From Spirochaetia bacterium (GTDB taxonomy: Bacteria; Spirochaetota; Spirochaetia; SP-2023): a stretch of DNA of 64,000 bases. How positions within the stretch are numbered: position 1 is the first letter of the stretch; every line of letters begins with the position of its first letter. Positions 21,379-41,665 of the stretch are shown piece by piece. The notes under the pieces were generated by a model. It did no database searches, was not told the DNA's origin, and worked only from the letters and a program-made list of their open reading frames with translations. The stretch spans positions 640,001 through 704,000 of the forward strand of contig CBDDCK010000005.1 of the NCBI GenBank assembly GCA_965225855.1, given 5' to 3'. The translations under genes and the position numbers were made by a program.

Positions 21379-21700
21379 AATTTAGAGCAAATATAAAAAG
21401 AGCGGTTGCGTTGCGTATGATCGTACTAAACATTTACGATTTTTTGCAATTTTTTGAGACTGCCACAGGCTCGTTGGGAAATCCCTAGGTTGCAAATCAA
21501 AAAAGCTAGTAAGGTTTTGGGCAAAAACCTTACTAGCTTTCTTTAAAAACCTTACTAGCTTTTTGAGACCATGCGCTGTTACCATGATATTTTGATACTT
21601 ACACCATCTTATACCATATTGCTGCCGACAATAACCCATATGCCGAAAAACAAAAATTCTAACGGTTAAAATTTAGAGCAAATATAGAAAGAGCAGTTGC
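21358..21700 (+). repeat. 52-bp direct repeat (21358-21409 and 21649-21700)
   Basis: AACAAAAATTCTAACGGTTAAAATTTAGAGCAAATATA(A/G)AAAGAGC(G/A)GTTGC in both copies. Confidence 0.9.
21466..21640 (-). mobile_element. Probable IS remnant (IS1182/IS5-like transposase C-terminus and right end)
   Basis: Minus-strand peptide YGIRWCKY...TAHGLKKLVRF resembles the DDE transposase tail (GLRR..Y.G...AHNLKKL); followed by GGGATTTCCCAACGAGCCTG, an IS-end-like sequence. Confidence 0.45.
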
Positions 21701-22643: not shown

Positions 22644-25600
22644 GTTGCAGTTGCATACCTTTTTTCATTTCGGTTTAATAAATTCTTTAGGTCTTTAACT
22701 TTAGCAGTTGTTGCAGTTGCATACCTTTTTTCATTTCGGTTTAATCCGTTGCCACGAAACCTTACCACCAAGGGCGTTGCAGTTGCATACCTTTTTTCAT
22801 TTCGGTTTAATCCTTGGCTTTGATTTTTTGGATATTATTTAGTTGCAGTTGCATACCTTTTTTCATTTCGGTTTAATACCTCTACCCCTATCTCTCCCCC
22901 CACTCCTGTTGCAGTTGCATACCTTTTTTCATTTCGGTTTAATACCTCTACCCCTATCTCTCCCCCCACTCCTGTTGCAGTTGCATACCTTTTTTCATTT
23001 CGGTTTAATCTTATTCTGCTTCTTAAGTCTATTATAGGTGTTGCAGTTGCATACCTTTTTTCATTTCGGTTTAATTCAGACCCAACAGACAAACCATGAC
23101 CGGCAGTTGCAGTTGCATACCTTTTTTCATTTCGGTTTAATGATTTGGATTGTGAATTGTGGTAGGCTATAGTTGCAGTTGCATACCTTTTTTCATTTCG
23201 GTTTAATTGCGCTTAGTCGCAAGGTCAACATCCAGGCGTTGCAGTTGCATACCTTTTTTCATTTCGGTTTAATCCTCTGGAGGCCACAAAGTGTAAGGCA
23301 GTGGTTGCAGTTGCATACCTTTTTTCATTTCGGTTTAATTTACGGGAAATACAAAGATACAATATTTTTGTTGCAGTTGCATACCTTTTTTCATTTCGGT
23401 TTAATATGCCAATAACATCTGGACTATCTCTTTTTGTTGCAGTTGCATACCTTTTTTCATTTCGGTTTAATCCTATAGGGATCACTGGTGGCTCACCTCT
23501 TGTTGCAGTTGCATACCTTTTTTCATTTCGGTTTAATACACATCTTTAATCAAAAATCCTACTTCTTGTTGCAGTTGCATACCTTTTTTCATTTCGGTTT
23601 AATTTCACTGCGACCAAGGGCAATATCCTGTTGGTTGCAGTTGCATACCTTTTTTCATTTCGGTTTAATCTTTGGTGTAATCATAATGTCGAATTTCTGG
23701 TTGCAGTTGCATACCTTTTTTCATTTCGGTTTAATACAAGGTCACGACCGCGACTAGGCTTGTATGTTGCAGTTGCATACCTTTTTTCATTTCGGTTTAA
23801 TTATTCAAGTCACCATACTCACCGGCAGCATGTTGCAGTTGCATACCTTTTTTCATTTCGGTTTAATACAAGGTCACGACCGCGACTAGGCTTGTATGTT
23901 GCAGTTGCATACCTTTTTTCATTTCGGTTTAATTATTCAAGTCACCATACTCACCGGCAGCATGTTGCAGTTGCATACCTTTTTTCATTTCGGTTTAATA
24001 TTAAACGCAACCCCCATTCAGTCGACCTAGTTGCAGTTGCATACCTTTTTTCATTTCGGTTTAATACCATCGCCAGCAACAAGTCTCTTTGCGTGGTTGC
24101 AGTTGCATACCTTTTTTCATTTCGGTTTAATGATTCTACCATTCTCACGCCCTACAAGAGCGTTGCAGTTGCATACCTTTTTTCATTTCGGTTTAATGTG
24201 AGGTATTAACAGCCGATGATATAGTTAGTTGCAGTTGCATACCTTTTTTCATTTCGGTTTAATTTGTCAGCCCAAATTGTTCTTTTGTATTATGTTGCAG
24301 TTGCATACCTTTTTTCATTTCGGTTTAATTATGCGCCCGTGATCTACAATATTATGGTTGTTGCAGTTGCATACCTTTTTTCATTTCGGTTTAATAGAAA
24401 TATCTCTAAGCATATTAAAAATCATGTTGCAGTTGCATACCTTTTTTCATTTCGGTTTAATTCTCTTTCGATACGATGCATCCATTCTTTAGTTGCAGTT
24501 GCATACCTTTTTTCATTTCGGTTTAATAGTAGACATATGCATAACTTTGCCAAGTATGTTGCAGTTGCATACCTTTTTTCATTTCGGTTTAATTTTGTGA
24601 ATGGTCCAGTGTCTGTATTCGTTGTTGCAGTTGCATACCTTTTTTCATTTCGGTTTAATAATTACAACATTCATCGGCAATAAATAAGAGTTGCAGTTGC
24701 ATACCTTTTTTCATTTCGGTTTAATCATTGTACCCTGCGGTGTACGATCAACATAGTTGCAGTTGCATACCTTTTTTCATTTCGGTTTAATTCCAGGAGT
24801 AACCATAACAGAACCCTTAGCGTTGCAGTTGCATACCTTTTTTCATTTCGGTTTAATCATTGTACCCTGCGGTGTACGATCAACATAGTTGCAGTTGCAT
24901 ACCTTTTTTCATTTCGGTTTAATTCCAGGAGTAACCATAACAGAACCCTTAGCGTTGCAGTTGCATACCTTTTTTCATTTCGGTTTAATCATTGTACCCT
25001 GCGGTGTACGATCAACATAGTTGCAGTTGCATACCTTTTTTCATTTCGGTTTAATTCCAGGAGTAACCATAACAGAACCCTTAGCGTTGCAGTTGCATAC
25101 CTTTTTTCATTTCGGTTTAATCATTGTACCCTGCGGTGTACGATCAACATAGTTGCAGTTGCATACCTTTTTTCATTTCGGTTTAATTCCAGGAGTAACC
25201 ATAACAGAACCCTTAGCGTTGCAGTTGCATACCTTTTTTCATTTCGGTTTAATCATTGTACCCTGCGGTGTACGATCAACATAGTTGCAGTTGCATACCT
25301 TTTTTCATTTCGGTTTAATAGTCTTAGGAATGGAGTGGGAAGTCTGAAGGTTGCAGTTGCATACCTTTTTTCATTTCGGTTTAATATTTTTGCCCGTTGT
25401 TTTGCTTTTATTGTGGTTGCAGTTGCATACCTTTTTTCATTTCGGTTTAATAAATTTGCCTGTTTTATATTCTCGTAGTACGTTGCAGTTGCATACCTTT
25501 TTTCATTTCGGTTTAATTGGAAGTCTTGGCTGGTGAAATTGTTAAATGTTGCAGTTGCATACCTTTTTTCATTTCGGTTTAATTGCTTTTTCTTTTTCCT

Positions 25601-28600
25601 GTGTTTTTTCTTGGTTGCAGTTGCATACCTTTTTTCATTTCGGTTTAATTTAGTGAGTGTCTTATTGCCGTCTTGATGGGTTGCAGTTGCATACCTTTTT
25701 TCATTTCGGTTTAATTCGATATTCTAGGCGCTAGTAACGCAGCTGTTGCAGTTGCATACCTTTTTTCATTTCGGTTTAATGCACTGATGCATAAATAGCT
25801 AGGTTTATCGGTTGCAGTTGCATACCTTTTTTCATTTCGGTTTAATTCGATATTCTAGGCGCTAGTAACGCAGCTGTTGCAGTTGCATACCTTTTTTCAT
25901 TTCGGTTTAATGCACTGATGCATAAATAGCTAGGTTTATCGGTTGCAGTTGCATACCTTTTTTCATTTCGGTTTAATTCGATATTCTAGGCGCTAGTAAC
26001 GCAGCTGTTGCAGTTGCATACCTTTTTTCATTTCGGTTTAATCCTCTGGTAATTCTCCAAGGCTTCGATGCAGTTGCAGTTGCATACCTTTTTTCATTTC
26101 GGTTTAATCCTCTGGTAATTCTCCAAGGCTTCGATGCAGTTGCAGTTGCATACCTTTTTTCATTTCGGTTTAATTTTTAGGTCGTGATGGTGAAGAGCTG
26201 GAAGGTTGCAGTTGCATACCTTTTTTCATTTCGGTTTAATTAAACAATATTAAAGGCAAGTTTATCTTGTGTTGCAGTTGCATACCTTTTTTCATTTCGG
26301 TTTAATAAAATCCAAACAAATCATTCAACAAAACAAGTTGCAGTTGCATACCTTTTTTCATTTCGGTTTAATTTCTGGGATATGATCAAGCGTTTCGCTG
26401 GCGTTGCAGTTGCATACCTTTTTTCATTTCGGTTTAATCCGTAGAGACAACATTATGAATAAGCGAAGGTTGCAGTTGCATACCTTTTTTCATTTCGGTT
26501 TAATAGTAGTAACAAGACCAAAATGAACATTTCCGTTGCAGTTGCATACCTTTTTTCATTTCGGTTTAATAGTAAAACCTCCTACGTCTGCGCATAAAAT
26601 GTTGCAGTTGCATACCTTTTTTCATTTCGGTTTAATATAATTATTTTATTCTCCACCCCTATAAAAGTTGCAGTTGCATACCTTTTTTCATTTCGGTTTA
26701 ATTGTGGCAATTGCCCAATTCGGGATATTTTCGTTGCAGTTGCATACCTTTTTTCATTTCGGTTTAATTAGCAGACCGTAAGGACTTACCAAGAGCTTGT
26801 TGCAGTTGCATACCTTTTTTCATTTCGGTTTAATTAAAAAGGTTGTTACGAGCACTGTAGAACAGTTGCAGTTGCATACCTTTTTTCATTTCGGTTTAAT
26901 TTAAGCGTTGCTGGGCTAAAGGTAATGTGTTGCAGTTGCATACCTTTTTTCATTTCGGTTTAATTGTAATTTCTACTGCTGTAGATTAGATAAAGTTGCA
27001 GTTGCATACCTTTTTTCATTTCGGTTTAATTGTAATTTCTACTGCTGTAGATTAGATAAAGTTGCAGTTGCATACCTTTTTTCATTTCGGTTTAATAGCC
27101 TTTACCAAGTTCTTCCACCCAATCATGTTGCAGTTGCATACCTTTTTTCATTTCGGTTTAATTGACCCGTCAACAGGTCAGTTTCGGCCTTAGTTGCAGT
27201 TGCATACCTTTTTTCATTTCGGTTTAATATATAAATGCTAAGTAATACCTCCGAATTAGTTGCAGTTGCATACCTTTTTTCATTTCGGTTTAATAATAGC
27301 AATTGGACAACCGAAAGCAAAGGGTTGCAGTTGCATACCTTTTTTCATTTCGGTTTAATAGCCTTTACCAAGTTCTTCCACCCAATCATGTTGCAGTTGC
27401 ATACCTTTTTTCATTTCGGTTTAATTGACCCGTCAACAGGTCAGTTTCGGCCTTAGTTGCAGTTGCATACCTTTTTTCATTTCGGTTTAATATATAAATG
27501 CTAAGTAATACCTCCGAATTAGTTGCAGTTGCATACCTTTTTTCATTTCGGTTTAATGAAAACCTTGAGTAACATAAACCGGTGTAGGTTGCAGTTGCAT
27601 ACCTTTTTTCATTTCGGTTTAATATAAAAAAGCTCGGCCTGCTTGTTCAGTGTGTTGCAGTTGCATACCTTTTTTCATTTCGGTTTAATAGCCCCAGTCG
27701 TTTTTTATGAATGTTTTGAGTTGCAGTTGCATACCTTTTTTCATTTCGGTTTAATCCCAATACTACCCAAATCTCCCTCATCCTTGTTGCAGTTGCATAC
27801 CTTTTTTCATTTCGGTTTAATCCTAATACCACCCAAATCTCTCTCATTCTTGTTGCAGTTGCATACCTTTTTTCATTTCGGTTTAATCTAGGTCTGTATT
27901 TGATCTATCTCATTCTGGTTGCAGTTGCATACCTTTTTTCATTTCGGTTTAATATTTGTAGATTGTTCTACCATAGAAGATTGGTTGCAGTTGCATACCT
28001 TTTTTCATTTCGGTTTAATAATACCGATTATCTACAGACTGGCAAGCGAGTTGCAGTTGCATACCTTTTTTCATTTCGGTTTAATATTTGTAGATTGTTC
28101 TACCATAGAAGATTGGTTGCAGTTGCATACCTTTTTTCATTTCGGTTTAATAATACCGATTATCTACAGACTGGCAAGCGAGTTGCAGTTGCATACCTTT
28201 TTTCATTTCGGTTTAATATTTGTAGATTGTTCTACCATAGAAGATTGGTTGCAGTTGCATACCTTTTTTCATTTCGGTTTAATAATACCGATTATCTACA
28301 GACTGGCAAGCGAGTTGCAGTTGCATACCTTTTTTCATTTCGGTTTAATAGCCCCAGTCGTTTTTTATGAATGTTTTGAGTTGCAGTTGCATACCTTTTT
28401 TCATTTCGGTTTAATCCCAATACTACCCAAATCTCCCTCATCCTTGTTGCAGTTGCATACCTTTTTTCATTTCGGTTTAATATAATACTTACTCCATTGT
28501 GTAAGGCTGGGGGTTGCAGTTGCATACCTTTTTTCATTTCGGTTTAATGTGTATCATAGTAGGTCTTGAATCTAGGTGGTTGCAGTTGCATACCTTTTTT

Positions 28601-31600
28601 CATTTCGGTTTAATCCAACCAAGCAATCGCAGCAAAACTGCCAGGTTGCAGTTGCATACCTTTTTTCATTTCGGTTTAATAAAATAATCTTTACCCCAGC
28701 AACGAGTCTGGTTGCAGTTGCATACCTTTTTTCATTTCGGTTTAATGCATGGACAAGAGAATGCCGCAGAAACCTTGTTGCAGTTGCATACCTTTTTTCA
28801 TTTCGGTTTAATCCACAGAACAAAAACCTAAGACTTGGTTGGGTTGCAGTTGCATACCTTTTTTCATTTCGGTTTAATAGATATAAGATGCGGATTGCGC
28901 TTAGTCGCGTTGCAGTTGCATACCTTTTTTCATTTCGGTTTAATATTCCTGCCAAAATAGCGCCTATAGCCATAGTTGCAGTTGCATACCTTTTTTCATT
29001 TCGGTTTAATCATAACATGATCGATATGATGGCGCATTTTGTTGCAGTTGCATACCTTTTTTCATTTCGGTTTAATACTCTTAGGAATAGTATGAGAAGT
29101 CTGTAGGTTGCAGTTGCATACCTTTTTTCATTTCGGTTTAATTTTTTCTTCCGTGCTTATTAATATTTTATTGTTGCAGTTGCATACCTTTTTTCATTTC
29201 GGTTTAATATTTATGTTGCATATAACAACCTCCTATAAGTTGCAGTTGCATACCTTTTTTCATTTCGGTTTAATCTTCTCAGCCAATTCACGTTGATGAT
29301 TCTTGTTGCAGTTGCATACCTTTTTTCATTTCGGTTTAATACCATGACCGGCCATCGTGCCCTGCGGTGTGTTGCAGTTGCATACCTTTTTTCATTTCGG
29401 TTTAATCAGACCAAGCAGACCATCGGACTTAATCCTGTTGCAGTTGCATACCTTTTTTCATTTCGGTTTAATAAATAGATTCTGGTCTCTATAGAATTCC
29501 TTGTTGCAGTTGCATACCTTTTTTCATTTCGGTTTAATAATAGCCTGATCCAAAGGAAGATCACCTTCGTTGCAGTTGCATACCTTTTTTCATTTCGGTT
29601 TAATGAGACTACCGGCTTCATATTTGGGCTTTGAGTTGCAGTTGCATACCTTTTTTCATTTCGGTTTAATAAATAGATTCTGGTCTCTATAGAATTCCTT
29701 GTTGCAGTTGCATACCTTTTTTCATTTCGGTTTAATAATAGCCTGATCCAAAGGAAGATCACCTTCGTTGCAGTTGCATACCTTTTTTCATTTCGGTTTA
29801 ATGAGACTACCGGCTTCATATTTGGGCTTTGAGTTGCAGTTGCATACCTTTTTTCATTTCGGTTTAATATTTTCACAAAACCTTCACACTCACTCTCTGT
29901 TGCAGTTGCATACCTTTTTTCATTTCGGTTTAATAGTAAAATCATAAAGGATAAAGTAATATTAGTTGCAGTTGCATACCTTTTTTCATTTCGGTTTAAT
30001 ACCCCAACAACGAACCTGAAGATCGTAAGTGTTGCAGTTGCATACCTTTTTTCATTTCGGTTTAATCCTACAACCCTTCACAACTCACTCATAATCGTTG
30101 CAGTTGCATACCTTTTTTCATTTCGGTTTAATTTATACTGGCGCTAATGTTGGTGAGGATGTGTTGCAGTTGCATACCTTTTTTCATTTCGGTTTAATGA
30201 GACTACCGGATTCATATCTGGAGCTTGCGTTGCAGTTGCATACCTTTTTTCATTTCGGTTTAATAATTCTTAGATAATATCCATTTAGGGCTAAGTTGCA
30301 GTTGCATACCTTTTTTCATTTCGGTTTAATTAGTCATAAACAAACTTTCTAAAGAATATTGTTGCAGTTGCATACCTTTTTTCATTTCGGTTTAATTTTC
30401 TGGTGGTGTGGGCTCGGCAAAATCCAGTTGCAGTTGCATACCTTTTTTCATTTCGGTTTAATAATGATCAGCGCCCAACCAGATAACTTTGTGTTGCAGT
30501 TGCATACCTTTTTTCATTTCGGTTTAATTTTCTGGTGGTGTGGGCTCGGCAAAATCCAGTTGCAGTTGCATACCTTTTTTCATTTCGGTTTAATTTTGCT
30601 TTCTTGAATCTGCTTGTATTTTAGGTTGCAGTTGCATACCTTTTTTCATTTCGGTTTAATTTTGCTTTCTTGAATCTGCTTGTATTTTAGGTTGCAGTTG
30701 CATACCTTTTTTCATTTCGGTTTAATTCGGAAACAGTTATGCCAGTAGCATTGGAAGTTGCAGTTGCATACCTTTTTTCATTTCGGTTTAATACGATCAA
30801 CCTCGGCTTGAATCTGCTTGTATTTTAGGTTGCAGTTGCATACCTTTTTTCATTTCGGTTTAATCTACCCAAATGCCAATAATCATAAGTAGTAGTTGCA
30901 GTTGCATACCTTTTTTCATTTCGGTTTAATTCAGCTAGCAGAGATTCATGATACAGTTCTGTTGCAGTTGCATACCTTTTTTCATTTCGGTTTAATCGAT
31001 CATGTATTAAAGCAATCTTCTCACGGGTTGCAGTTGCATACCTTTTTTCATTTCGGTTTAATAGGTCACTAACGCGGCGCTGTACAGAAGTGTTGCAGTT
31101 GCATACCTTTTTTCATTTCGGTTTAATAATCCAAACCATCGTGGTAGATGGCGTAGCGTTGCAGTTGCATACCTTTTTTCATTTCGGTTTAATATGAAGG
31201 TTTATTTTGTGCCTTATGGGCTTGTTGCAGTTGCATACCTTTTTTCATTTCGGTTTAATCTCATTTCTCTCATCCTTCACAACCTTCCAGTTGCAGTTGC
31301 ATACCTTTTTTCATTTCGGTTTAATATCAAAAATAGTTTTTTGAAGAGATTTCTGGTTGCAGTTGCATACCTTTTTTCATTTCGGTTTAATTCGCTACCA
31401 ACAGAAAGACCATGACCGGCAGTTGCAGTTGCATACCTTTTTTCATTTCGGTTTAATAAAGGCTAGATTTTCTAAGGTTGGGCCTTTGTTGCAGTTGCAT
31501 ACCTTTTTTCATTTCGGTTTAATAAATTTTTATCAAAATAATGGCCACCTTGCGTTGCAGTTGCATACCTTTTTTCATTTCGGTTTAATAGGAAACTTCT

Positions 31601-34600
31601 TTCCTTGACAAGGCATATTGTTGCAGTTGCATACCTTTTTTCATTTCGGTTTAATACTTAGATTTTTAAGTGCTTCTACAGGTGTGTTGCAGTTGCATAC
31701 CTTTTTTCATTTCGGTTTAATCTATTGATTATGGGCCTGTTGGGCTCTTGGGTTGCAGTTGCATACCTTTTTTCATTTCGGTTTAATTAAAAAATCGTCA
31801 ATGTCGCTACTGTGTCGGTTGCAGTTGCATACCTTTTTTCATTTCGGTTTAATCTTAAATTTGTAACTTTTTTATAATTTTTGGTTGCAGTTGCATACCT
31901 TTTTTCATTTCGGTTTAATCTGCTTAATTTTTTAGCTTGGAGACTTGTGTTGCAGTTGCATACCTTTTTTCATTTCGGTTTAATTTTATCAACATCTCCA
32001 ATCTACACCAGTAGGTTGCAGTTGCATACCTTTTTTCATTTCGGTTTAATGCGAGAGCCAGCACGGGCGTTACGCTCAAGGTTGCAGTTGCATACCTTTT
32101 TTCATTTCGGTTTAATTACCCCAACAGCGAGTATGAAGTTTCTGCGGTTGCAGTTGCATACCTTTTTTCATTTCGGTTTAATCTAAAGACTCTAGCTCTT
32201 TCTCCTTTTGCAGTTGCAGTTGCATACCTTTTTTCATTTCGGTTTAATTACTCTTTAAGTAGATCGTTATCTATACCAGTTGCAGTTGCATACCTTTTTT
32301 CATTTCGGTTTAATTGTAACAACCCCCGAATGTAGGCTTGGATAGTTGCAGTTGCATACCTTTTTTCATTTCGGTTTAATAAAAGTATCGCCCAAAACAG
32401 GAGCAGTCACGTTGCAGTTGCATACCTTTTTTCATTTCGGTTTAATTGGCCGGTCAAAAGGTCAGTCTCAGCCTCAGTTGCAGTTGCATACCTTTTTTCA
32501 TTTCGGTTTAATTAGCAAAGCTAAAGGTAATTGGCAAGGTGGGTTGCAGTTGCATACCTTTTTTCATTTCGGTTTAATAAATCCAGAAACTAGCAGGCCT
32601 TTTAGTTGGTTGCAGTTGCATACCTTTTTTCATTTCGGTTTAATTCAAGGGCCATCGTAATGCGACGAATGCGGGTTGCAGTTGCATACCTTTTTTCATT
32701 TCGGTTTAATATAATTACAAAAACCCCAATACAGAAGCAGGTTGCAGTTGCATACCTTTTTTCATTTCGGTTTAATTTGAGCACGGAGAAATTAGAAGAT
32801 ACAAAGGTTGCAGTTGCATACCTTTTTTCATTTCGGTTTAATTCACTCCTTACCTTAAGCAATCCTTGATTGGTTGCAGTTGCATACCTTTTTTCATTTC
32901 GGTTTAATAGCCACGTTATCATGGATCGCATAAAGTTTGTTGCAGTTGCATACCTTTTTTCATTTCGGTTTAATAAGGCTGCATGCGTATAACAAGATTG
33001 CACCGTTGCAGTTGCATACCTTTTTTCATTTCGGTTTAATCTTGTTAAGCTTTTTAAGCCTATTATAAGTGTTGCAGTTGCATACCTTTTTTCATTTCGG
33101 TTTAATTCTGTATTTCAGCAATACTAGGTTTCTATTGTTGCAGTTGCATACCTTTTTTCATTTCGGTTTAATATACCTGTGATGCCGTCTGTACATTAAA
33201 ACGTTGCAGTTGCATACCTTTTTTCATTTCGGTTTAATATATAAAAAAGCATCAATAGATTCACCCTCGTTGCAGTTGCATACCTTTTTTCATTTCGGTT
33301 TAATAAATTCCACAAGGTCAAAAATTATTTGCAAGTTGCAGTTGCATACCTTTTTTCATTTCGGTTTAATAAAAAAGAAAAATCCAGAAAGAACAGGACA
33401 GTTGCAGTTGCATACCTTTTTTCATTTCGGTTTAATTACAATTATTGGCAATAATAGAGATATGCTGTTGCAGTTGCATACCTTTTTTCATTTCGGTTTA
33501 ATCAAGGCTAGCGACTTCTGCAGCCAATTTGTGTTGCAGTTGCATACCTTTTTTCATTTCGGTTTAATTTGTTAGCACTTCTGCCGCTTCTGGTATTGGT
33601 TGCAGTTGCATACCTTTTTTCATTTCGGTTTAATTATTATAGGTAGATTTGCGCAAAGAGTCAAGTTGCAGTTGCATACCTTTTTTCATTTCGGTTTAAT
33701 TGTGAAAAATAGCTCCTACATTTTTTTTCTGTTGCAGTTGCATACCTTTTTTCATTTCGGTTTAATTCATGCATAAGACGAAGACCCCACTCGAAAGTTG
33801 CAGTTGCATACCTTTTTTCATTTCGGTTTAATCAACCTTCTGAGATTGACCGGTCAACAGATGTTGCAGTTGCATACCTTTTTTCATTTCGGTTTAATTA
33901 ATATAGCAATCCATTGCTAATATTTCTAGTTGCAGTTGCATACCTTTTTTCATTTCGGTTTAATTCCACATCGGGAGATTAAATCATGCAGATAGTTGCA
34001 GTTGCATACCTTTTTTCATTTCGGTTTAATAACGGTGCTTGTAACAACCTTCTTGGCGACGTTGCAGTTGCATACCTTTTTTCATTTCGGTTTAATTTGG
34101 CTATATATAAGTAGGTTTTGGGCACTGTTGCAGTTGCATACCTTTTTTCATTTCGGTTTAATAAAAGTATCGCCTAATACAGGAGCAGTCACGTTGCAGT
34201 TGCATACCTTTTTTCATTTCGGTTTAATTTGTTTAGTTTTTCAGTCTTCACTATTATAGTTGCAGTTGCATACCTTTTTTCATTTCGGTTTAATGAAAAG
34301 GCCACCAAAACCTTCACGTGTCAAGTTGCAGTTGCATACCTTTTTTCATTTCGGTTTAATAGAAATATACAGTGGAATCAAAAGAATTAGGTTGCAGTTG
34401 CATACCTTTTTTCATTTCGGTTTAATTTCGGCCTTACGAACCTTGTCAACCTGAGCGTTGCAGTTGCATACCTTTTTTCATTTCGGTTTAATCATATTAA
34501 GGTCGCCGTACTCACCACAACAGTTGCAGTTGCATACCTTTTTTCATTTCGGTTTAATTTTTTTGTATTGGTCGATTATCTTGGTACTGTTGCAGTTGCA

Positions 34601-35944
34601 TACCTTTTTTCATTTCGGTTTAATTATCCTGAGATCGTTGACCGTTATCATTGTGTTGCAGTTGCATACCTTTTTTCATTTCGGTTTAATCGTTTAGTGG
34701 CAAGATCAACATCTAAACCAGTTGCAGTTGCATACCTTTTTTCATTTCGGTTTAATACATTCCGCACACGGTCATAGTCAACCTGTGTTGCAGTTGCATA
34801 CCTTTTTTCATTTCGGTTTAATCATAGGCTTGTTTTTGTTCATAGCTTAGTTGTTGCAGTTGCATACCTTTTTTCATTTCGGTTTAATTACCATCGTTGT
34901 CACCTAAAGTAGAAACATGTTGCAGTTGCATACCTTTTTTCATTTCGGTTTAATTCAATTGTGTTTTTTTGCTTGTCAAAGGCTGTTGCAGTTGCATACC
35001 TTTTTTCATTTCGGTTTAATCAAAGAGTCAAGCGTTTTTTGATGATTTTCGTTGCAGTTGCATACCTTTTTTCATTTCGGTTTAATAGATTTCTGGTATT
35101 CAAAAACATTCTTTCTGTTGCAGTTGCATACCTTTTTTCATTTCGGTTTAATTTAGGATCAGAAGCAATAATGCGCCTAGCAGTTGCAGTTGCATACCTT
35201 TTTTCATTTCGGTTTAATATAGGCTGAAACCGTATAACAAGATTTGCAGTTGCAGTTGCATACCTTTTTTCATTTCGGTTTAATAAAAATCAAAGCTTAT
35301 TCAGCTTCTTTAACGTTGCAGTTGCATACCTTTTTTCATTTCGGTTTAATAGCCACATTGTCGTGGATCGCATATAGTTTGTTGCAGTTGCATACCTTTT
35401 TTCATTTCGGTTTAATAGCGCTAGTGCCGTCACGGCCACCAGTAATGTTGCAGTTGCATACCTTTTTTCATTTCGGTTTAATAATTGCCACAATCCATAA
35501 ACTGGCAAACAAGTTGCAGTTGCATACCTTTTTTCATTTCGGTTTAATATGCTGATGATCTCAATAAGTTTTTGTCCTGTTGCAGTTGCATACCTTTTTT
35601 CATTTCGGTTTAATAATTGCCACAATCCATAAACTGGCAAACAAGTTGCAGTTGCATACCTTTTTTCATTTCGGTTTAATTTTTTGCTATATAAGGTAGG
35701 TTTTGACACTGTTGCAGTTGCATACCTTTTTTCATTTCGGTTTAATGACCACTGCCAACGAATCGGCAGCAATTTGGTTGCAGTTGCATACCTTTTTTCA
35801 TTTCGGTTTAATAATCTAATCTACAACAGTAGAAATTTGAAGGTTGCAGTTGCATACCTTTTTTCATTTCGGTTTAATACCTTCTCACGAGACCTCTTCG
35901 TCTCTCTTGTTGCAGTTGCATACCTTTTTTCATTTCGGTTTAAT
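22644..35944 (+). CRISPR. Type II-C CRISPR array, 202 repeats / 201 spacers (mostly 30 nt)
   Basis: Repeat GTTGCAGTTGCATACCTTTTTTCATTTCGGTTTAAT, 66-bp period; first repeat starts 22644, last 35909. Orientation + inferred from tracrRNA anti-repeat and a -10-like TTTAAT at each repeat end, as in Neisseria II-C. Confidence 0.99.
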
Positions 35945-36010
35945 AGTCCCCTAGCTAAGTAGTTGTTTTCACATTGCTTAGCTAGGTATGGGCTTGAGAA
36001 AAAATGCAAT
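35945..36010 (+). promoter_or_regulatory. CRISPR leader (cas-proximal) with inverted repeat CCTAGCTAAGTA...TGCTTAGCTAGG
   Basis: Abuts the last intact repeat on the cas2 side; a near-identical copy follows the degenerate repeat at 36551. Confidence 0.7.
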
Positions 36011-36240
36011 TCAACACAGTAAAAGGGCTTGTTCTCTGGCACTTTTTTTGCTGTTATCGCGTTTGTGCTGGCTGTAGCTGCTGATGTTCGCATATTGTAT
36101 ATCCGTTATCGTTATTATATCTACCTGTCCCCCCTTCGGGGGGAGAGAGTTTTTGATTCACTCTAATAATCGCTTGCGTTGTTTATTGCCGCCAGCAAAT
36201 TTATAGTATACAGAATATTGGGCCATAGTAAAGTCTTGTT
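36011..36240 (-). pseudogene. cas2: cas2 3' fragment, diverged duplicate with in-frame stop
   Basis: Translates FTMAQYSVYYKFAGGNKQRKRLLE*IKNSLPPKGGQVDIITITDIQYANISSYSQHKRDNSKKSAREQALLLC*, colinear with the intact cas2. Confidence 0.9.
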
Positions 36241-36340
36241 CCGCCTTGCTATAATATATCTCTCCGCCTTGGATCAAGGCCTTGTTCCACCTTGCTATAA
36301 TATATCTTTCCGCCTTGGATCAAGGCCTTGATCCAAGGCG
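36235..36340. repeat. 46-bp repeat element (2.3 units) ending in a perfect 30-bp palindrome (36311-36340)
   Basis: CTTGTTCCGCCTTGCTATAATATATCTCTCCGCCTTGGATCAAGGC units; palindrome CGCCTTGGATCAAGGCCTTGATCCAAGGCG. Confidence 0.85.
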
Positions 36341-36516
36341 CTTGTTTTTAATTACATGCCTTTAAGCAAGTTAGTGATACCAAAAAACTGGTGGCGTCTT
36401 TGATTACGCCAAAGATGGGATACCCAGCCATGAAAAATAAACCCAAACGCCCACCCAGCGTATTGTAGAAAGCCGAAAGAGCTTAAATAAACAGGGCTTG
36501 CGGCCCATCTAAAAAT

Positions 36517-36549
36517 AGCTTGCATACCTTTTCTTCATTTCACTTTAAT
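36517..36549 (+). CRISPR. Solitary degenerate CRISPR repeat next to intact cas2
   Basis: AGCTTGCATACCTTTTCTTCATTTCACTTTAAT versus consensus; followed by a leader copy. Confidence 0.8.
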
Positions 36550-36613
36550 TAGTGCCCTAGCTAAGTAATTTTTTCAGATTGCTTAGCTAGGCATGGGTTT
36601 GGGAAAAGGCCAT

Positions 36614-36949
36614 TCAAAACAGTAAAAGCGGTTGTTCTCTGGCACTTTTTTTGCTGTTATCGCGTTTGTGCTGGCTGTAGCTGATGATATTGGCATATTG
36701 TATATCCGTGATTGTAATTATATCTACTTGCCCCTTCTGGGGTAGGGCACTTTTGATTAACTCTAGTAGTCGCTTGCGCTGCTCGCTTCCGCCAGCAAAT
36801 TTATAGTATACAGAGTATTGGGCCATAGTAAAGCCTTGCTCTAATAGAAACTGGCGAAAGCGCGTGGCTTCTTTGCGTTCTTGTTGTTCCACTACTGGTA
36901 GGTCAAACATTAGATATAGCCACATCACTTTGTAAGGGTTAAGGCGCAT
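36614..36949 (-). CDS. cas2: CRISPR-associated endonuclease Cas2
   Basis: MWLYLMFDLPV...FRQFLL..GFTMAQYSVY...ITDIQY; downstream of cas1. Confidence 0.96.
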   Translation of the reverse strand: MRLNPYKVMWLYLMFDLPVVEQQERKEATRFRQFLLEQGFTMAQYSVYYKFAGGSEQRKRLLELIKSALPQKGQVDIITITDIQYANIISYSQHKRDNSKKSAREQPLLLF

Positions 36950-37905
36950 AGTTCTACTACATCAATAGCGGTTTGCTCATCTAAGGTGATTGGCTCTAGC
37001 TTTTGTTGCTTGCCCTCTAACACCATGCAAAAGTTTTGCACATAGCGCAGCTCTTGGCGCATTAGGTAGCTTTGTTCGTTGCTGTAATCTAGTTCTTGGC
37101 GTAGTAACTGACTAAGCGCTCGCTTACTTTCGCTATTCAGTTCACGATAACCCCAATGGTAGTATAGGTGGGTAACAAAGGCGTCTACCAACGGGCGTAG
37201 GGTTTCCATAAGGTCGCTAGCTAGGCAATAGGGGTTTTGGCTGTTGCAGTGCTGTATGCCAAACGCCCCCAGTAAACCGCAGCAATTGATGGCTCGTATC
37301 ACACAACCCAGCAAAATGGTATAGCCGTAGTTGAGTAAGCCATTGGGCGGCATTGGCCCCAAACGGCGGAAGTCATCGCCAAATAGCATAGGCCAATAGC
37401 GTTGGGCAGCTGTAGCTTCTAGCATCGTGCTGTCCCCGCTTTGTACCTTTTCGGCCATCGCCAGCAGTTCATTGGCTAAGGCTTGTTCTTCATTTGCTTC
37501 TAGGCAGTGGCGATTGTCCCAACCGAAGCTGGCAGCCATTTGCAATAGCCAGGCTTGGTTGCGTATTTTGTTTTGTACCACCCCTTGCCAGAGCCGTTTC
37601 TTTTTGGGCAACTTGGCCTCTACTTGTAGCCGTACCCGTTGTTGCAAACGGCTATGGCCGTCTAATGGCAGCATGGCTACCGAAGGTAAGTAGTCCGCAC
37701 CGCACAATAGCACAGGGATATTGCGCTTAGCCAATTGGTTTAGCAACGGTGTACTGACTGTGGATTGCGGACTATTCAGCAATAGCACGCCAATACGCTC
37801 TAGGTCTACAAGGTGCTTTTGGCCATTGCGCAGTAGTTCCAGATGGCCCCGCTTTTGGTGTAGGTAGCAGCCGCTGCTTTCTACTTCTATTACTTGTTCG
37901 TACAC
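36925..37905 (-). CDS. cas1: CRISPR-associated endonuclease Cas1 (type II)
   Basis: KIRNQ, SGD...EATAAQRYW..LFG, NGLLNYGYTIL, GIQH, LASDLMETLRPLVD. Confidence 0.96.
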   Translation of the reverse strand: MYEQVIEVESSGCYLHQKRGHLELLRNGQKHLVDLERIGVLLLNSPQSTVSTPLLNQLAKRNIPVLLCGADYLPSVAMLPLDGHSRLQQRVRLQVEAKLPKKKRLWQGVVQNKIRNQAWLLQMAASFGWDNRHCLEANEEQALANELLAMAEKVQSGDSTMLEATAAQRYWPMLFGDDFRRLGPMPPNGLLNYGYTILLGCVIRAINCCGLLGAFGIQHCNSQNPYCLASDLMETLRPLVDAFVTHLYYHWGYRELNSESKRALSQLLRQELDYSNEQSYLMRQELRYVQNFCMVLEGKQQKLEPITLDEQTAIDVVELCALTLTK

Positions 37906-37914
37906 AGAGGCCTA

Positions 37915-40900
37915 CTACCTATGGCGAACCCAGCCGCCGGGGCTAATGTATACCGCTTGGCATTGCATCTCGTCTCCAAAGATTTTGCTGATCACTTTGT
38001 ATTTCTGGGGGCTATTGGCTTCAATTAGGGGCCGTATATCTAATTTATCGTTTGTAGCGGAATATCCTTTCACCAAGTAGTATTGGCCATCGGCCTTACT
38101 GTACAAAGTGTCATTCTTATAAAGCCTAGTAAGGTGTTCGGCAGAATCTGGTGCTGTTTGCTCCTGCTTGCGTTGGGCTTGGTAGTAGCTAGTGAAGGTT
38201 ACTTTGTATTCTGCCTTACTACCGTTTACAGTGCGCCATATATCGCAGTAAGCATAGCCATCGGGCATGTAGTATTGTGGGCTGCTGGTTTTTGGCTGTA
38301 CTAGGGTTTGGTCTTTGGGTATGTAGCGTACCTTCTTGATGCCATGCTTTGCCCCATAGTCTTTGATGAAACTTTCCCAAGAGAGCTTCTTATCACCATC
38401 ACTTTGTTGCGCTTGGTAGGCCTCTTTTAGCCTTGTGCGCAGGCCATCATCAACTGGGCCTTGATAGCCTTGTTCCAGTGGCTCACAGTCTTTCTCTGTT
38501 ATCCCGCTTAGTAGCTTGCTGTTGACAAAGTAGCCATGCCAATAACGCAGGCCTATCTTGGGGTGTTCTAGCGCAAAGGCTTTGTGGCCTTCGTTCCATA
38601 ATTTTCCCAATGGTCCTTTTTGTGTTCTTTGTAGTAGTGCTTGGGTCTCTTGCTCTAGCTGTAGCAACTGGCCCCGTTGGGGTTTTATGGTTGCTGCTAT
38701 CTGGCGTAGTTCGCTTATCGAGCCTTGCAGTTCTTGTTGTTTCTTGCAGTTTGCTTTTGTGTTCTGGGCTTGGGCCGGGTTTGTTTCGGGCCGAGTAGCA
38801 ATATAATCCAGCAGCCAATGGGCTTGCTCTGGCCGTACCAACAATGGTAAGTTTTCACGCAGTGTTTTGCCATCTATAGCGCTAATTGCTTTGTAGATTA
38901 AACCATTCGCCGTTTCTGCAAACATCGCACTGTTATGGCTATGATCCTGTTTGTGGGACACAATGATACTGCTTACCACCGTTTCTATTTGCTGGCGTAA
39001 ACCCTGTCGTTCCCCAGCCATGCGCTGCATGGCATAGCGTTGCCTCCGCTTAGCTGTTTTCAGTTCTTCAGCTTCTTTGCCCAATAACTGGTCTTGACTA
39101 AATGCAAAGTAGCCACTCAAGCGTTTGAGCAAACTGCGGTCAATCATCGCTACCACTATCGCATCTATCGCATGGTGGCGGTGGTCATTGCGGTTTTTCT
39201 TTTTATGTTTGGGGTTCTCGTTGAGCAGACTATTGAGATTCAGGTTGTCCCGCAGCATTTCCGTTATGTGGCCATTGCTAGCCCACACTTGCGGGCAAAT
39301 AGATTGTAGATACTGCATAGCCTTACGGGCAATATAGGCGTTATCGGTAGTTTGCCTAGCCAAGAAGTGGTCATCGCTTTCATACCGTTTCATCGCTTCC
39401 GCTGTAAAGTGTTCTTGCTTGTTCTTAGGTAGGTTTCCGGTAGCTTGTTTGATTCGTTGCCAACGTTCCGCATCGTGGCCAAAAGCCTCGTAAGGGCTAC
39501 GGTCTCCCTTTTGGCGGTTGCAGGCCGTGTGGCTTAGCGTTAGGTTTGCCATACCATTATCTAAGGTACGGCTAAAGGGCAAGATATGCTCTATCTCCAC
39601 TCGGTTGTCGGGGCTAAATAAATCACTCGCAGGGATTTTTACGCCACAGTAAGGGCACTTTGCCGTAGTGTTCTTTAGGGCTAGCTCTTCATATAATTGC
39701 AGCTTGCGGCGGTCGTCCCTGCTGGGGTAGTGAATATTGTAGTTTTCCCGCAATTCTTTGTTCCGCCGCTCGTTTTGCTTTTTGTTCTCATTTTGTAGCT
39801 TGCTGATCTCGGCCTTGGCTTTGCGGCTATTCTTTAGGTCGCGCCCCAATTCAACCACCACCTCATCGGGTAGGCCATAATGGCCTATTATATCATTGAC
39901 TACCTTACGCACTTGGTTTAAGGCCACATGCACGGTTGGGTTGCCAATACGGCCATACTTAGCTTCATCACTGTTTATCTCTAAACCGGGCTTATTCTTT
40001 TGCAGCTTTTTGAGTGGGTAACATGATTCTGGCATTGCAGCACCATAATAGGGTAAAGTCGGCAGCAGCTGGCTCTTCTTCTGTTTATCGACACGCAGTT
40101 TCTGTAAATGGGTTGCACCGCCATCATCGGGGTATTGTTCCAATAAATAGTGTAGTACCTCCCGTTGCAGGCAGGCACTTAGCTCTGTCGTACCTGTCGG
40201 AAGTTCATAGGCAAATAGTGCTTGGCATTGTTGTTCACTTAGCCCCAGTTCTCTAAATGGCTGTAGCAGTTTGTCTTGCTCGTTATCCTTGGCATAGGTA
40301 AACAGCATAACCTTTTCACAAAGGCTATCTTGTTCCTCTAAGTTCAGCTTATGCCAGTGTTCTTTTCCAAAAAACTCGGGCTTTTGCATCTCTACATTGA
40401 CTACAGCACCCTCTAACTCTTCTTTACGGTTCTTTTCTAAGTTAAAGGTAATATTTTCGCTCCAGCCGAACATTTTGCGTATAGCTTTGAAGGTCATGCT
40501 TTTGCAGTTACACAGCTTATTGTAGAGCTGCAAGCGTTCTTGATTGTTTAAACTTATCTGGCTACCATGTTCATCTATCATGCGTAAGTTCAGCACGTTT
40601 TGGGCAATACGCAGCCGTTCACTACTGGGCTGGCTTTTATAGGCTCGGTCTTCATCTTCGTAGTACCAGCATTTGCCCCGTTCTGGTTTCTGTAAAGGCC
40701 GTTGATAAAATAGAATCTGCTCTAGCGTATCCCAATTGATGTTCTCAAAAGCTGGGTACTGGCTTTGCTGCTGCCTAATCGCTCTAAACTCATCGCGATA
40801 CATTTGTCTGTTGGCATAGAAATCGCCTATATCGGCCTGGGTGTTTTGCTCTCCTGCGGCTGTTGTAGCTTTGTCATTGCGGAAGCGTACACTTTGTTTT

Positions 40901-41457
40901 GCCTTTTTGCGTTGGTAGAGCCATGTACCCAAAGTAGCGTCTTGTGCCAAGGTTTGCTCCAACTTACGAATGCGCTGTAAATTGGCGCGCTCTTCCTTCT
41001 CTTTTTCTGTTGCTTTGTCTTCAGTTTTACTTTGTTTCCGATTACTTTGGTAGCCACGCCTCTGGCACAAGTGGAATAAAGCCCGCCCAAGTTCGTAAGG
41101 TTTTAGCTCTTGCTTCACCGCTAAAGAGCGCAATCGGTATGGGTCTTGTTTCATCAAGCTTGTATTTTCTGGGCTGTTGGGTGGTGGCAATAGCCCTTGT
41201 TGTTGTAGTTCTTTGGCAAATTTAGCCACGCGCCGTTTTAACCTACGTAGTCTGCGCCGACTACCTCTAGCCTCACGGCGAGCTACAGCTAACGAAGAAT
41301 CTTTTTCATCTCGACCATCACTAAATATACGCACTCCAGCCGTTTCTAACTGCTTTAGCGTATAAGTCTTTTTGTTTGCTTCTTTAGCATCTAGGCTCCA
41401 AATAGACCAGCCTATAGAATTTGTTCCTAGGTCTAAACCTAAGCGGTAAGGTTTCAT
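37915..41457 (-). CDS. cas9: Type II-C Cas9 (1180 aa)
   Basis: RuvC-I LGLDLGTNSIGW, Arg-rich bridge helix, NPTVHVALNQ, HNH EIEHILPFSRTLDN..N..CN..KG, RuvC-III HHAIDA; no csn2 or cas4. Confidence 0.97.
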   Translation of the reverse strand: MKPYRLGLDLGTNSIGWSIWSLDAKEANKKTYTLKQLETAGVRIFSDGRDEKDSSLAVARREARGSRRRLRRLKRRVAKFAKELQQQGLLPPPNSPENTSLMKQDPYRLRSLAVKQELKPYELGRALFHLCQRRGYQSNRKQSKTEDKATEKEKEERANLQRIRKLEQTLAQDATLGTWLYQRKKAKQSVRFRNDKATTAAGEQNTQADIGDFYANRQMYRDEFRAIRQQQSQYPAFENINWDTLEQILFYQRPLQKPERGKCWYYEDEDRAYKSQPSSERLRIAQNVLNLRMIDEHGSQISLNNQERLQLYNKLCNCKSMTFKAIRKMFGWSENITFNLEKNRKEELEGAVVNVEMQKPEFFGKEHWHKLNLEEQDSLCEKVMLFTYAKDNEQDKLLQPFRELGLSEQQCQALFAYELPTGTTELSACLQREVLHYLLEQYPDDGGATHLQKLRVDKQKKSQLLPTLPYYGAAMPESCYPLKKLQKNKPGLEINSDEAKYGRIGNPTVHVALNQVRKVVNDIIGHYGLPDEVVVELGRDLKNSRKAKAEISKLQNENKKQNERRNKELRENYNIHYPSRDDRRKLQLYEELALKNTTAKCPYCGVKIPASDLFSPDNRVEIEHILPFSRTLDNGMANLTLSHTACNRQKGDRSPYEAFGHDAERWQRIKQATGNLPKNKQEHFTAEAMKRYESDDHFLARQTTDNAYIARKAMQYLQSICPQVWASNGHITEMLRDNLNLNSLLNENPKHKKKNRNDHRHHAIDAIVVAMIDRSLLKRLSGYFAFSQDQLLGKEAEELKTAKRRQRYAMQRMAGERQGLRQQIETVVSSIIVSHKQDHSHNSAMFAETANGLIYKAISAIDGKTLRENLPLLVRPEQAHWLLDYIATRPETNPAQAQNTKANCKKQQELQGSISELRQIAATIKPQRGQLLQLEQETQALLQRTQKGPLGKLWNEGHKAFALEHPKIGLRYWHGYFVNSKLLSGITEKDCEPLEQGYQGPVDDGLRTRLKEAYQAQQSDGDKKLSWESFIKDYGAKHGIKKVRYIPKDQTLVQPKTSSPQYYMPDGYAYCDIWRTVNGSKAEYKVTFTSYYQAQRKQEQTAPDSAEHLTRLYKNDTLYSKADGQYYLVKGYSATNDKLDIRPLIEANSPQKYKVISKIFGDEMQCQAVYISPGGWVRHR

Positions 41458-41541: not shown

Positions 41542-41665
41542 GTTGAACCGAATTGAAAACAGGTATGCTTGGGCTATACGCTTAGCTGCCAACAAGCCTT
41601 GTAAGAGGCGCAAAATTATGGCTTAACTTCAATTAGTTTCCTTTTTGAAGTTAAGCCAGTTTTTT
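41542..41665 (+). ncRNA. tracrRNA
   Basis: GTTGAACCGAATTGAAAACAGGTATGC...CTGCCAAC complementary to the repeat; short nexus-like hairpin; terminator TGGCTTAACTTCAA/TTGAAGTTAAGCCA plus T-run. Confidence 0.9.

Follow-up and report, generated by a model that had tools for sequence, protein, structure and literature searches.

Cas12a handles inside Cas9 spacers of a Spirochaetia genome: candidate traces of viral RNA decoys

Why should the spacers of a Cas9 array contain the CRISPR RNA (crRNA) handle of Cas12a, the effector of another CRISPR type? The question is raised by a stretch of 64,000 nt from a Spirochaetia bacterium (GCA_965225855.1, contig CBDDCK010000005.1, 640,001-704,000 of the forward strand; hereafter the window, positions 1-64,000), in which a type II-C CRISPR array lies at 22644..35944 on the plus strand, with 202 identical 36-nt repeats and 201 spacers, 171 of them unique. 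Four of these spacers bear the handle of type V-A repeats. The explanation that we favour, with a probability of about two in three, is that they were sampled by the Cas9 system from solitary V-A repeats of viruses, which would act as decoys of the RNA anti-CRISPR (Racr) type for the Cas12a and Cas12a3-like proteins of the host.

Spacer 66 (26965..26994, plus strand) holds the complete handle at 26968-26986, with loop GCT and followed by TAGAT, and spacer 67 (27031..27060, plus strand) is its identical duplicate, with the handle at 27034-27052. Spacer 200 (35813..35842, minus strand) also holds the complete handle, at 35819-35837 and again followed by TAGAT, with the loop GTT of the host's own V-A repeats. 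In spacer 142 (31985..32014, minus strand), which the original prediction also named, the handle is indeed present in its final 14 nt, with loop GGT and 16 nt of downstream sequence starting with TGGAG, but the AATTT part is not seen. Of the fixed bases of the pattern AATTTCTACT-NNN-GTAGAT, searched exactly, spacers 66 and 200 each match 16/16, and spacer 142 matches the 11/11 that are visible; the predicted picture of a handle whose stem is kept while its loop varies is thus borne out by exact matches in spacers 66, 67 and 200 and a partial one in 142, and so is the TAGAT continuation common to spacers 66 and 200. Computed folding gives the handle hairpin for all three distinct spacers, their folding energy taken alone being ordinary compared with shuffles (z -1.1 to -1.8). 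From the base composition of the spacers, 3.6e-6 full handles are expected by chance over 4106 windows, and 2.4e-4 for the 11-base edge case of spacer 142. The handle is a real, non-chance feature of the II-C spacers, and it goes back to three independent events of acquisition, at scattered places in the array, not four, given that spacer 67 duplicates spacer 66. Spacers 66 and 200, identical at 24/28 positions and on opposite strands, probably derive from homologous sites of related viruses. Elsewhere in the same genome, the handle is found in 0/286 unique spacers of the V-A array and 0/53 unique spacers of a third array.

A Cas12a system with the identical handle does exist in this host, as a search of the genome for handle and cas12a revealed. 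It lies on the same contig as the window (G000:C5, coordinates in host contig numbering), where 323 identical repeats, each with the same 19-nt handle at its end, form an array (1074340-1094685) directly upstream of cas12a; the 327 genome-wide matches to the handle are these 323 repeats and the four II-C spacers. cas12a and a Cas12a3-like gene (1065917-1074272) have this one array in common. The Cas12a protein is unusually large (1568 aa), scores 1025.6 bits against TIGR04330 (cut-off 300) and has its three RuvC motifs. The 1202-aa protein encoded after it matches two PDB sequences only, both of them Cas12a3 (9HLX and 21WE, E about 1e-52), aligns with Cas12a3 over most of its length, keeps RuvC-like and zinc-ribbon motifs, and has no match in Pfam or NCBIfam. 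Since all that remains of V-A adaptation is a cas4 fragment of 81 residues, with no V-A cas1 or cas2 detected in the assembly (94% complete), the locus probably no longer adapts. Within the V-A array, spacer 79 (1089685, 54 nt) joins two spacers with no repeat between them.

Could the II-C system simply have taken the handles from this array, the matching V-A spacers having since mutated or been lost? Self-acquisition does occur here, as six of the II-C spacers are perfect matches to the host chromosome, and spacer 200 carries the host loop. However, all 323 host repeats are identical, yet every one of them differs from spacers 66 and 200 in the upstream flank and from spacers 66 and 142 in the loop, and TAGAT begins no V-A spacer. 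The best host matches of the three spacers reach 26, 23 and 25 of 30 nt, each with mismatches near the end of the protospacer adjacent motif (PAM), and for this reason the spacers can survive beside 323 similar repeats; no source was found elsewhere in the host assembly. An origin in the host's own array, an alternative named in the original prediction, is largely refuted by this misfit, and we hold it to be very improbable.

Solitary handles, on the other side, do occur in viruses. A scan of IMG/VR gave at least 121 stretches with the handle and a further 49 for GNT loops; among the matches listed there are 110 distinct single-handle contexts, 78 of them outside open reading frames (ORFs) of at least 100 aa. 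In INPHARED, searched from BLAST seeds, four microviruses have a perfect, single, intergenic handle in gene sense (MK496734, MG945527, MK496751 and MG945824), where chance would give about 0.03 among the 3675 capsid-matching records, and in MK496734 the handle sits between a promoter-like TTGACA-17-TATCTT site and a terminator. Microviral handles are real but rare. The proposal that microviruses may carry a solitary V-A repeat is hence upheld as to the existence of such viruses, and not as to the contigs from which the three spacers came, which were not found. The four INPHARED microviruses are Racr candidates in their own right. Tailed phages carry such units too, and the solitary handle is also present in Leptospira phages and a Methanosarcina virus.

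The bases that follow the handle add to this. TAGAT stands after 4/78 of the non-coding solitary viral handles among the matches listed, compared with 0/286 host V-A spacers (p 9e-6), and it accounts for 17/30 stretches and 8/18 families in a scan for the handle followed by TANAT (p 0.016). Because TAGAT is enriched after solitary handles, its presence in spacers 66 and 200 tilts the balance towards a solitary source for them. Stretches with the handle and TAGAT lie outside arrays in 10/23 cases in GTDB and 10/18 in metagenomes, fractions to be read with the expectation that array repeats far outnumber solitary handles, an assumption with no measured denominator. The remaining 13/23 GTDB stretches are arrays, none of the 23 being in a non-V-A array, and they speak for a different source, namely a multi-repeat V-A array of foreign origin, carried by a plasmid, a virus or donor DNA, in other words a rival CRISPR system; so does a search of 60 relatives, in which 5 other genomes have V-A arrays. 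Such a source would require three arrays with three loops, two of the spacers share a TAGAT start that no host V-A spacer has, PLSDB gave no plasmid match, and no source derived from cas genes or arrays was found. We regard a foreign array as improbable.

Solitary handles followed by TAGAT, sometimes in tandem, were seen in phage operons and bacterial contigs at twelve loci, and twice per genome in three genomes; one is upstream of an ORF that we take to be dnaK-like. Generic slippage was considered as the origin of TAGAT and rejected, as duplications of 4, 6 and 7 nt were not seen by eye among the solitary-handle matches listed. If TAGAT guided self-binding at the handle's own TTG, another idea considered, the match would extend over only 5 nt in most cases and 12 nt in one tandem case. 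At eight loci, ordinary phage genes such as those for tail and tape measure have a solitary handle immediately before their ribosome-binding site and start codon, and Cas12a bound to the handle would cover that site. GGAG right after the handle serves as ribosome-binding site, with an ORF start within 32 nt, in 11/97 non-coding contexts. The genes 3' of these units encode tail, tape-measure, methylase or unknown proteins, and no anti-CRISPR family was found among the 10 of them scanned in PHROGs. One viral solitary handle (L039, 1501-1560) is followed by a stretch that seems to resemble a II-C repeat, which would make it a possible multi-type decoy cluster.

Which viruses, then, would have supplied the handles? 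We scored translated spacers against 150 microvirus capsid proteins, with a threshold of 34 and shuffled sets as control. The threshold was reached by 10/171 II-C spacers (0/171 shuffled), 6/286 V-A spacers and 5/53 third-array spacers (0 shuffled in both), and, against 120 microvirus Rep proteins, by 4/171 II-C spacers (0 shuffled). Judging from these peptide matches, all three arrays target microviruses, and the suspicion that microviruses are among the invaders hit by the II-C array finds good support in the capsid and Rep peptides. Tailed phages are likely also among the targets, and the majority of spacers have no assigned target. Capsid-derived spacers adjoin one of those of interest: spacer 143 (32051..32080, minus strand), next to spacer 142, encodes the microvirus major capsid motif LERNARAGSR, and spacer 144 (32117..32146, minus strand), which overlaps the capsid-derived spacer 92 with 16/19 nt, is probably capsid-derived too. 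Spacer 102 (29341..29370, minus strand), with the microvirus capsid motif TPQGTMAGHG, is one of the 10 capsid-matching II-C spacers. Both minus-strand handle spacers are oriented like 10/11 capsid spacers scoring at least 33. Also, eight spacer pairs are in the same register with 24-28 of 30 identity, as expected if related small genomes attack repeatedly.

The size of the carrier can be approached with a model of uniform acquisition, with one handle per genome and an assumed 40-100 spacers supplied by 4.8-kb genomes. The probability of at least three handle spacers is then 0.0009-0.011 for 4.8-kb genomes and 6e-5 to 1.3e-4 for 40-kb genomes, that is, with the spacer numbers assumed, three handle spacers are 7 to 200 times more probable from the smaller ones. 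This suggests that small genomes are favoured as the source of the handle and, if the units are decoys at all, we lean towards microviruses as their likeliest carriers.

Several observations count against solitary decoys, or against microviruses as those who carry them. The protospacer contigs, which the original prediction had hoped to recover, were found in none of IMG/VR, the JGI metagenomes, GTDB, INPHARED and PLSDB, and handle-bearing loci had in common with the spacer flanks, or with other host spacers, nothing more than short chance matches; only 30 nt of each handle site are visible through the spacers. In three same-genus genomes, five non-V-A arrays with about 250 spacers contain no handle spacer. 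The handle-bearing loci of IMG/VR and metagenomes, many of them only 0.6-3 kb long, have no microvirus capsid or Rep match, and the handle is found in 0/14 microvirus loci of IMG/VR, in 0/2 same-class prophages (microvirus prophages occur in 2/401 genomes of the class, neither of them with a handle) and in neither of the two nearest relatives of MK496734. The inspected examples of handle and TAGAT all lie in larger phage or bacterial contigs and none in a microvirus, and at least one of the II-C spacers may, by a candidate motif, be terminase-like, so that the carrier could be a tailed phage. Three handle spacers exceed the uniform model even for microviruses, which would imply that such spacers are preferentially acquired or retained, or that a virus has more than one handle. 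Finally, all three spacers share one open frame (N-F-Y-C/W-C-R-L-D/E), the loop and two downstream differences falling at its third codon positions, and the loops GCT and GGT occur, among the matches listed, in 1 and 0 of the 78 non-coding solitary handles and in 2 and 3 of the 32 chance matches within ORFs.

There is no microvirus prophage in the host genome. One of those found in the class, integrated in another genome (G116:C8, about 1087900-1092100), has a capsid gene that matches spacer 52 of the third array at 27/28 nt. A search with a capsid as query gave no relative in GTDB and only the query itself in IMG/VR.

The open frame, its third-position differences and the higher share of GCT and GGT loops within ORFs would all be natural if the handle were embedded in a viral reading frame and coded twice, or if a coding motif just resembled it. 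Mimicry by chance, raised as an alternative by the original prediction, is excluded by the 3.6e-6 full handles expected for 16 exact bases. As for a gene that contains the handle, the peptides of the open frame score 20-24 against the 120 Rep proteins and less than 33 against the 150 capsids, 0/15 shared-pattern matches in IMG/VR are in a microvirus gene or have the frame open throughout, and the handle with TAGAT is found directly after stop codons in phages. A coding origin seems to us improbable in view of this, and a dual-coding handle would still be a functional handle. A zinc finger of Rep was also considered as the source of the CRLD/E peptide and discarded, as neither spacing nor scores fit.

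What follows the handle could also have a purpose of its own. The viral units might be programmed guides, either Cracr-type RNAs by which Cas12a is led to repress cas12a, or guides of mini-arrays directed against rival viruses. Liu et al. (bioRxiv 10.1101/2024.10.29.618823) define Cracrs by the presence of a PAM together with 9 or more PAM-proximal pairs, and in their preprint CracrVA1 acts by a 10-nt match. Here, the 10 nt after the handle of spacer 142 match the host cas12a start codon exactly, one of 5 host sites (p about 0.002 by position and 0.012 if all sites are gene starts, both post hoc), and the 8 nt after that of spacer 66 have a match within cas12a, 36 nt further in. Against such guides, the bases adjacent to the two cas12a sites are TATA and TCTG, not TTTV, so that neither has the PAM of the definition, and TTTV followed by TGGAGATG does not occur in the genome, TTTV being the published rule and not the measured PAM of this Cas12a. 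Also, the 8-mer of spacer 66 has 300 genome matches, GGAG after the handle is a frequent ribosome-binding site in phages, no PAM-adjacent target of at least 9 nt lies near 19 loci with handle and TAGAT, and only 6-16 nt of each spacer's tail are visible. Upstream of cas12a, the tail of the last V-A repeat differs from the spacer tails, in a comparison that was not a systematic search for CreR. Programmed guides are in our opinion unlikely, if worth keeping in mind.

We come back to solitary viral repeats that act as decoys. In such a scenario, Cas1-Cas2 of the II-C system would have taken three spacers from viruses, most probably microviruses, with a lone handle, and the protospacers would be solitary, intergenic and promoter-linked units. 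The lone viral hairpin is predicted to be transcribed, processed and bound by the host effectors; the handle RNA would soak up Cas12a and the Cas12a3-like protein, and effectors bound in this way would be lost to immunity. Cas9 could cut the decoy gene and would remain unaffected by the decoy because it does not use the V-A handle. A change of loop could offer the virus an escape from Cas9 while the stem stays, and the three loops may come from such pressure, because only loop and flanks would be free to change without losing Cas12a binding. Overlapping spacers place a T at PAM position 5 in 8/9 deduced cases (p 4e-4), and the nine flanks shown for the six perfectly self-matching spacers have no T there; if a complete handle lay upstream in the case of spacer 142, it would provide this T. 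By analogy, the units likely work like Racrs and are putative members of that group, with source, transcription and inhibition being what we infer.

It is tempting to go further, and we do so with more doubt than confidence. Microviruses, too small for most anti-CRISPR proteins, would carry a minimal 19-nt handle RNA that blinds Cas12a together with a co-encoded, RNA-triggered Cas12a3-like effector; Cas9 spacers against the decoy gene would be kept above chance, the viruses would answer by changing the loop, and the handle followed by TAGAT would be a recurring, undescribed RNA design in phages and bacterial chromosomes. If the decoy reading is right, even without these additions, this genome would hold a record of one CRISPR system targeting the viral RNA inhibitor of another, and thereby a concrete reason for keeping several CRISPR types. 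It would also extend RNA anti-CRISPRs to 5-kb single-stranded DNA phages, with four public genomes as cases, and provide a candidate natural inhibitor of Cas12a3-type effectors as well as a sequence signature usable for predicting the hosts of microviruses. The concept of a decoy is itself already published; what would be new are the microviral carriers and the Cas9 spacers against V-A Racrs, neither of which turned up in the literature searched.

The locus that would have made these acquisitions has cas2 (36614..36949), the only cas1 detected in the genome, of type II (36925..37905), and cas9 (37915..41457, 1180 aa, with RuvC and HNH motifs), all on the minus strand, and upstream of cas9 an anti-repeat at 41542..41577, identical to the repeat at 26/36 positions and part of a putative trans-activating crRNA. 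Its assignment to type II-C follows from the cas9-cas1-cas2 set with csn2 and cas4 absent, the 36-nt repeats and 30-nt spacers, and the anti-repeat. On the right of the array, at 35945-36840, are a duplicated cas2 fragment, leader and degenerate repeat, and on its left an orphan degenerate repeat stands at 21690, about 950 nt away. Spacer 124 (30793-30828, 36 nt) is chimeric or fused, its 3' part being common to spacers 121 and 122. II-C spacer 129 (31128-31157) and V-A spacer 47 (G000:C5 1091722) perfectly match a dispersed host repeat family (8 and 50 copies), and 11 other spacers match single host sites. The third array (G000:C5 896070-902540) belongs to a second cas9-cas2 locus (896070-906679) that has no cas1; the array is broken up by a DNA methylase and a transposase of the IS1595 family, and a lone copy of its repeat is found 250 kb away (1152749), beside restriction-modification and HTH/M78 genes.

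How does this compare with what is known? The closest relatives of the proposed units are the V-A Racrs RacrVA1-3 and other solitary repeat units (SRUs) of Camara-Wilpert et al. (2023, PMC10651486), three of which inhibited MbCas12a. They have in common a lone V-A repeat in a virus, a host with the matching subtype and predicted competition for the effector. In contrast to them, the present case is known only through the Cas9 spacers of the host, its carrier is likely microviral, the host has a Cas12a3-like effector in addition, and the 5' half of the host repeat is not seen in the flanks. In the SRU table of that work, as far as it was available, loops GCT and GGT in forward orientation are absent and MK496734 is unlisted, and microviral SRUs may be among its IMG/VR ids, which carry no taxonomy. 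Within the text available of these and further sources (including PMC12908700 and PMC11656645; the figure on Racr virus taxonomy, Extended Data Fig. 8a, lay outside it), no microviral V-A units or spacers against Racrs are described. Variation of the loop finds a parallel in a review (PMC6507119), in which the stem and AAUU motif of the Cas12a handle are conserved and tolerance of the loop varies by orthologue. With regard to the second effector, Cas12a3 (Ba1Cas12a3) binds the crRNA's 5' pseudoknot like Cas12a does (PMC12851939), and the portion of that report at hand mentions no RNA decoy against Cas12a3; the 1202-aa protein of our host is likened to Cas12a3 by its PDB matches and may belong to clade a2, a3 or a4. 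CracrVA1 and other Cracrs share with the present units a single 19-nt handle with a spacer-like tail in a phage, the tail of spacer 142 having its 10-nt match at the cas12a start. They differ in that the sites here lack an adjacent TTTV PAM, and that a host CreR with the same tail was not found, in the absence of a systematic search; of the 219 Cracr candidates of Liu et al., 202 are from Caudoviricetes, 16 from plasmids and 1 from Megaviricetes. Last, the V-A standalone repeats and viral mini-arrays of Shmakov et al. (2023, bioRxiv 10.1101/2023.03.03.530964) are likewise solitary repeat-like sequences, for which binding and inhibition of the effector have been proposed. Unlike their V-A cases, which reside in host cas loci, the units considered here would be foreign, and are themselves the targets of a CRISPR system.

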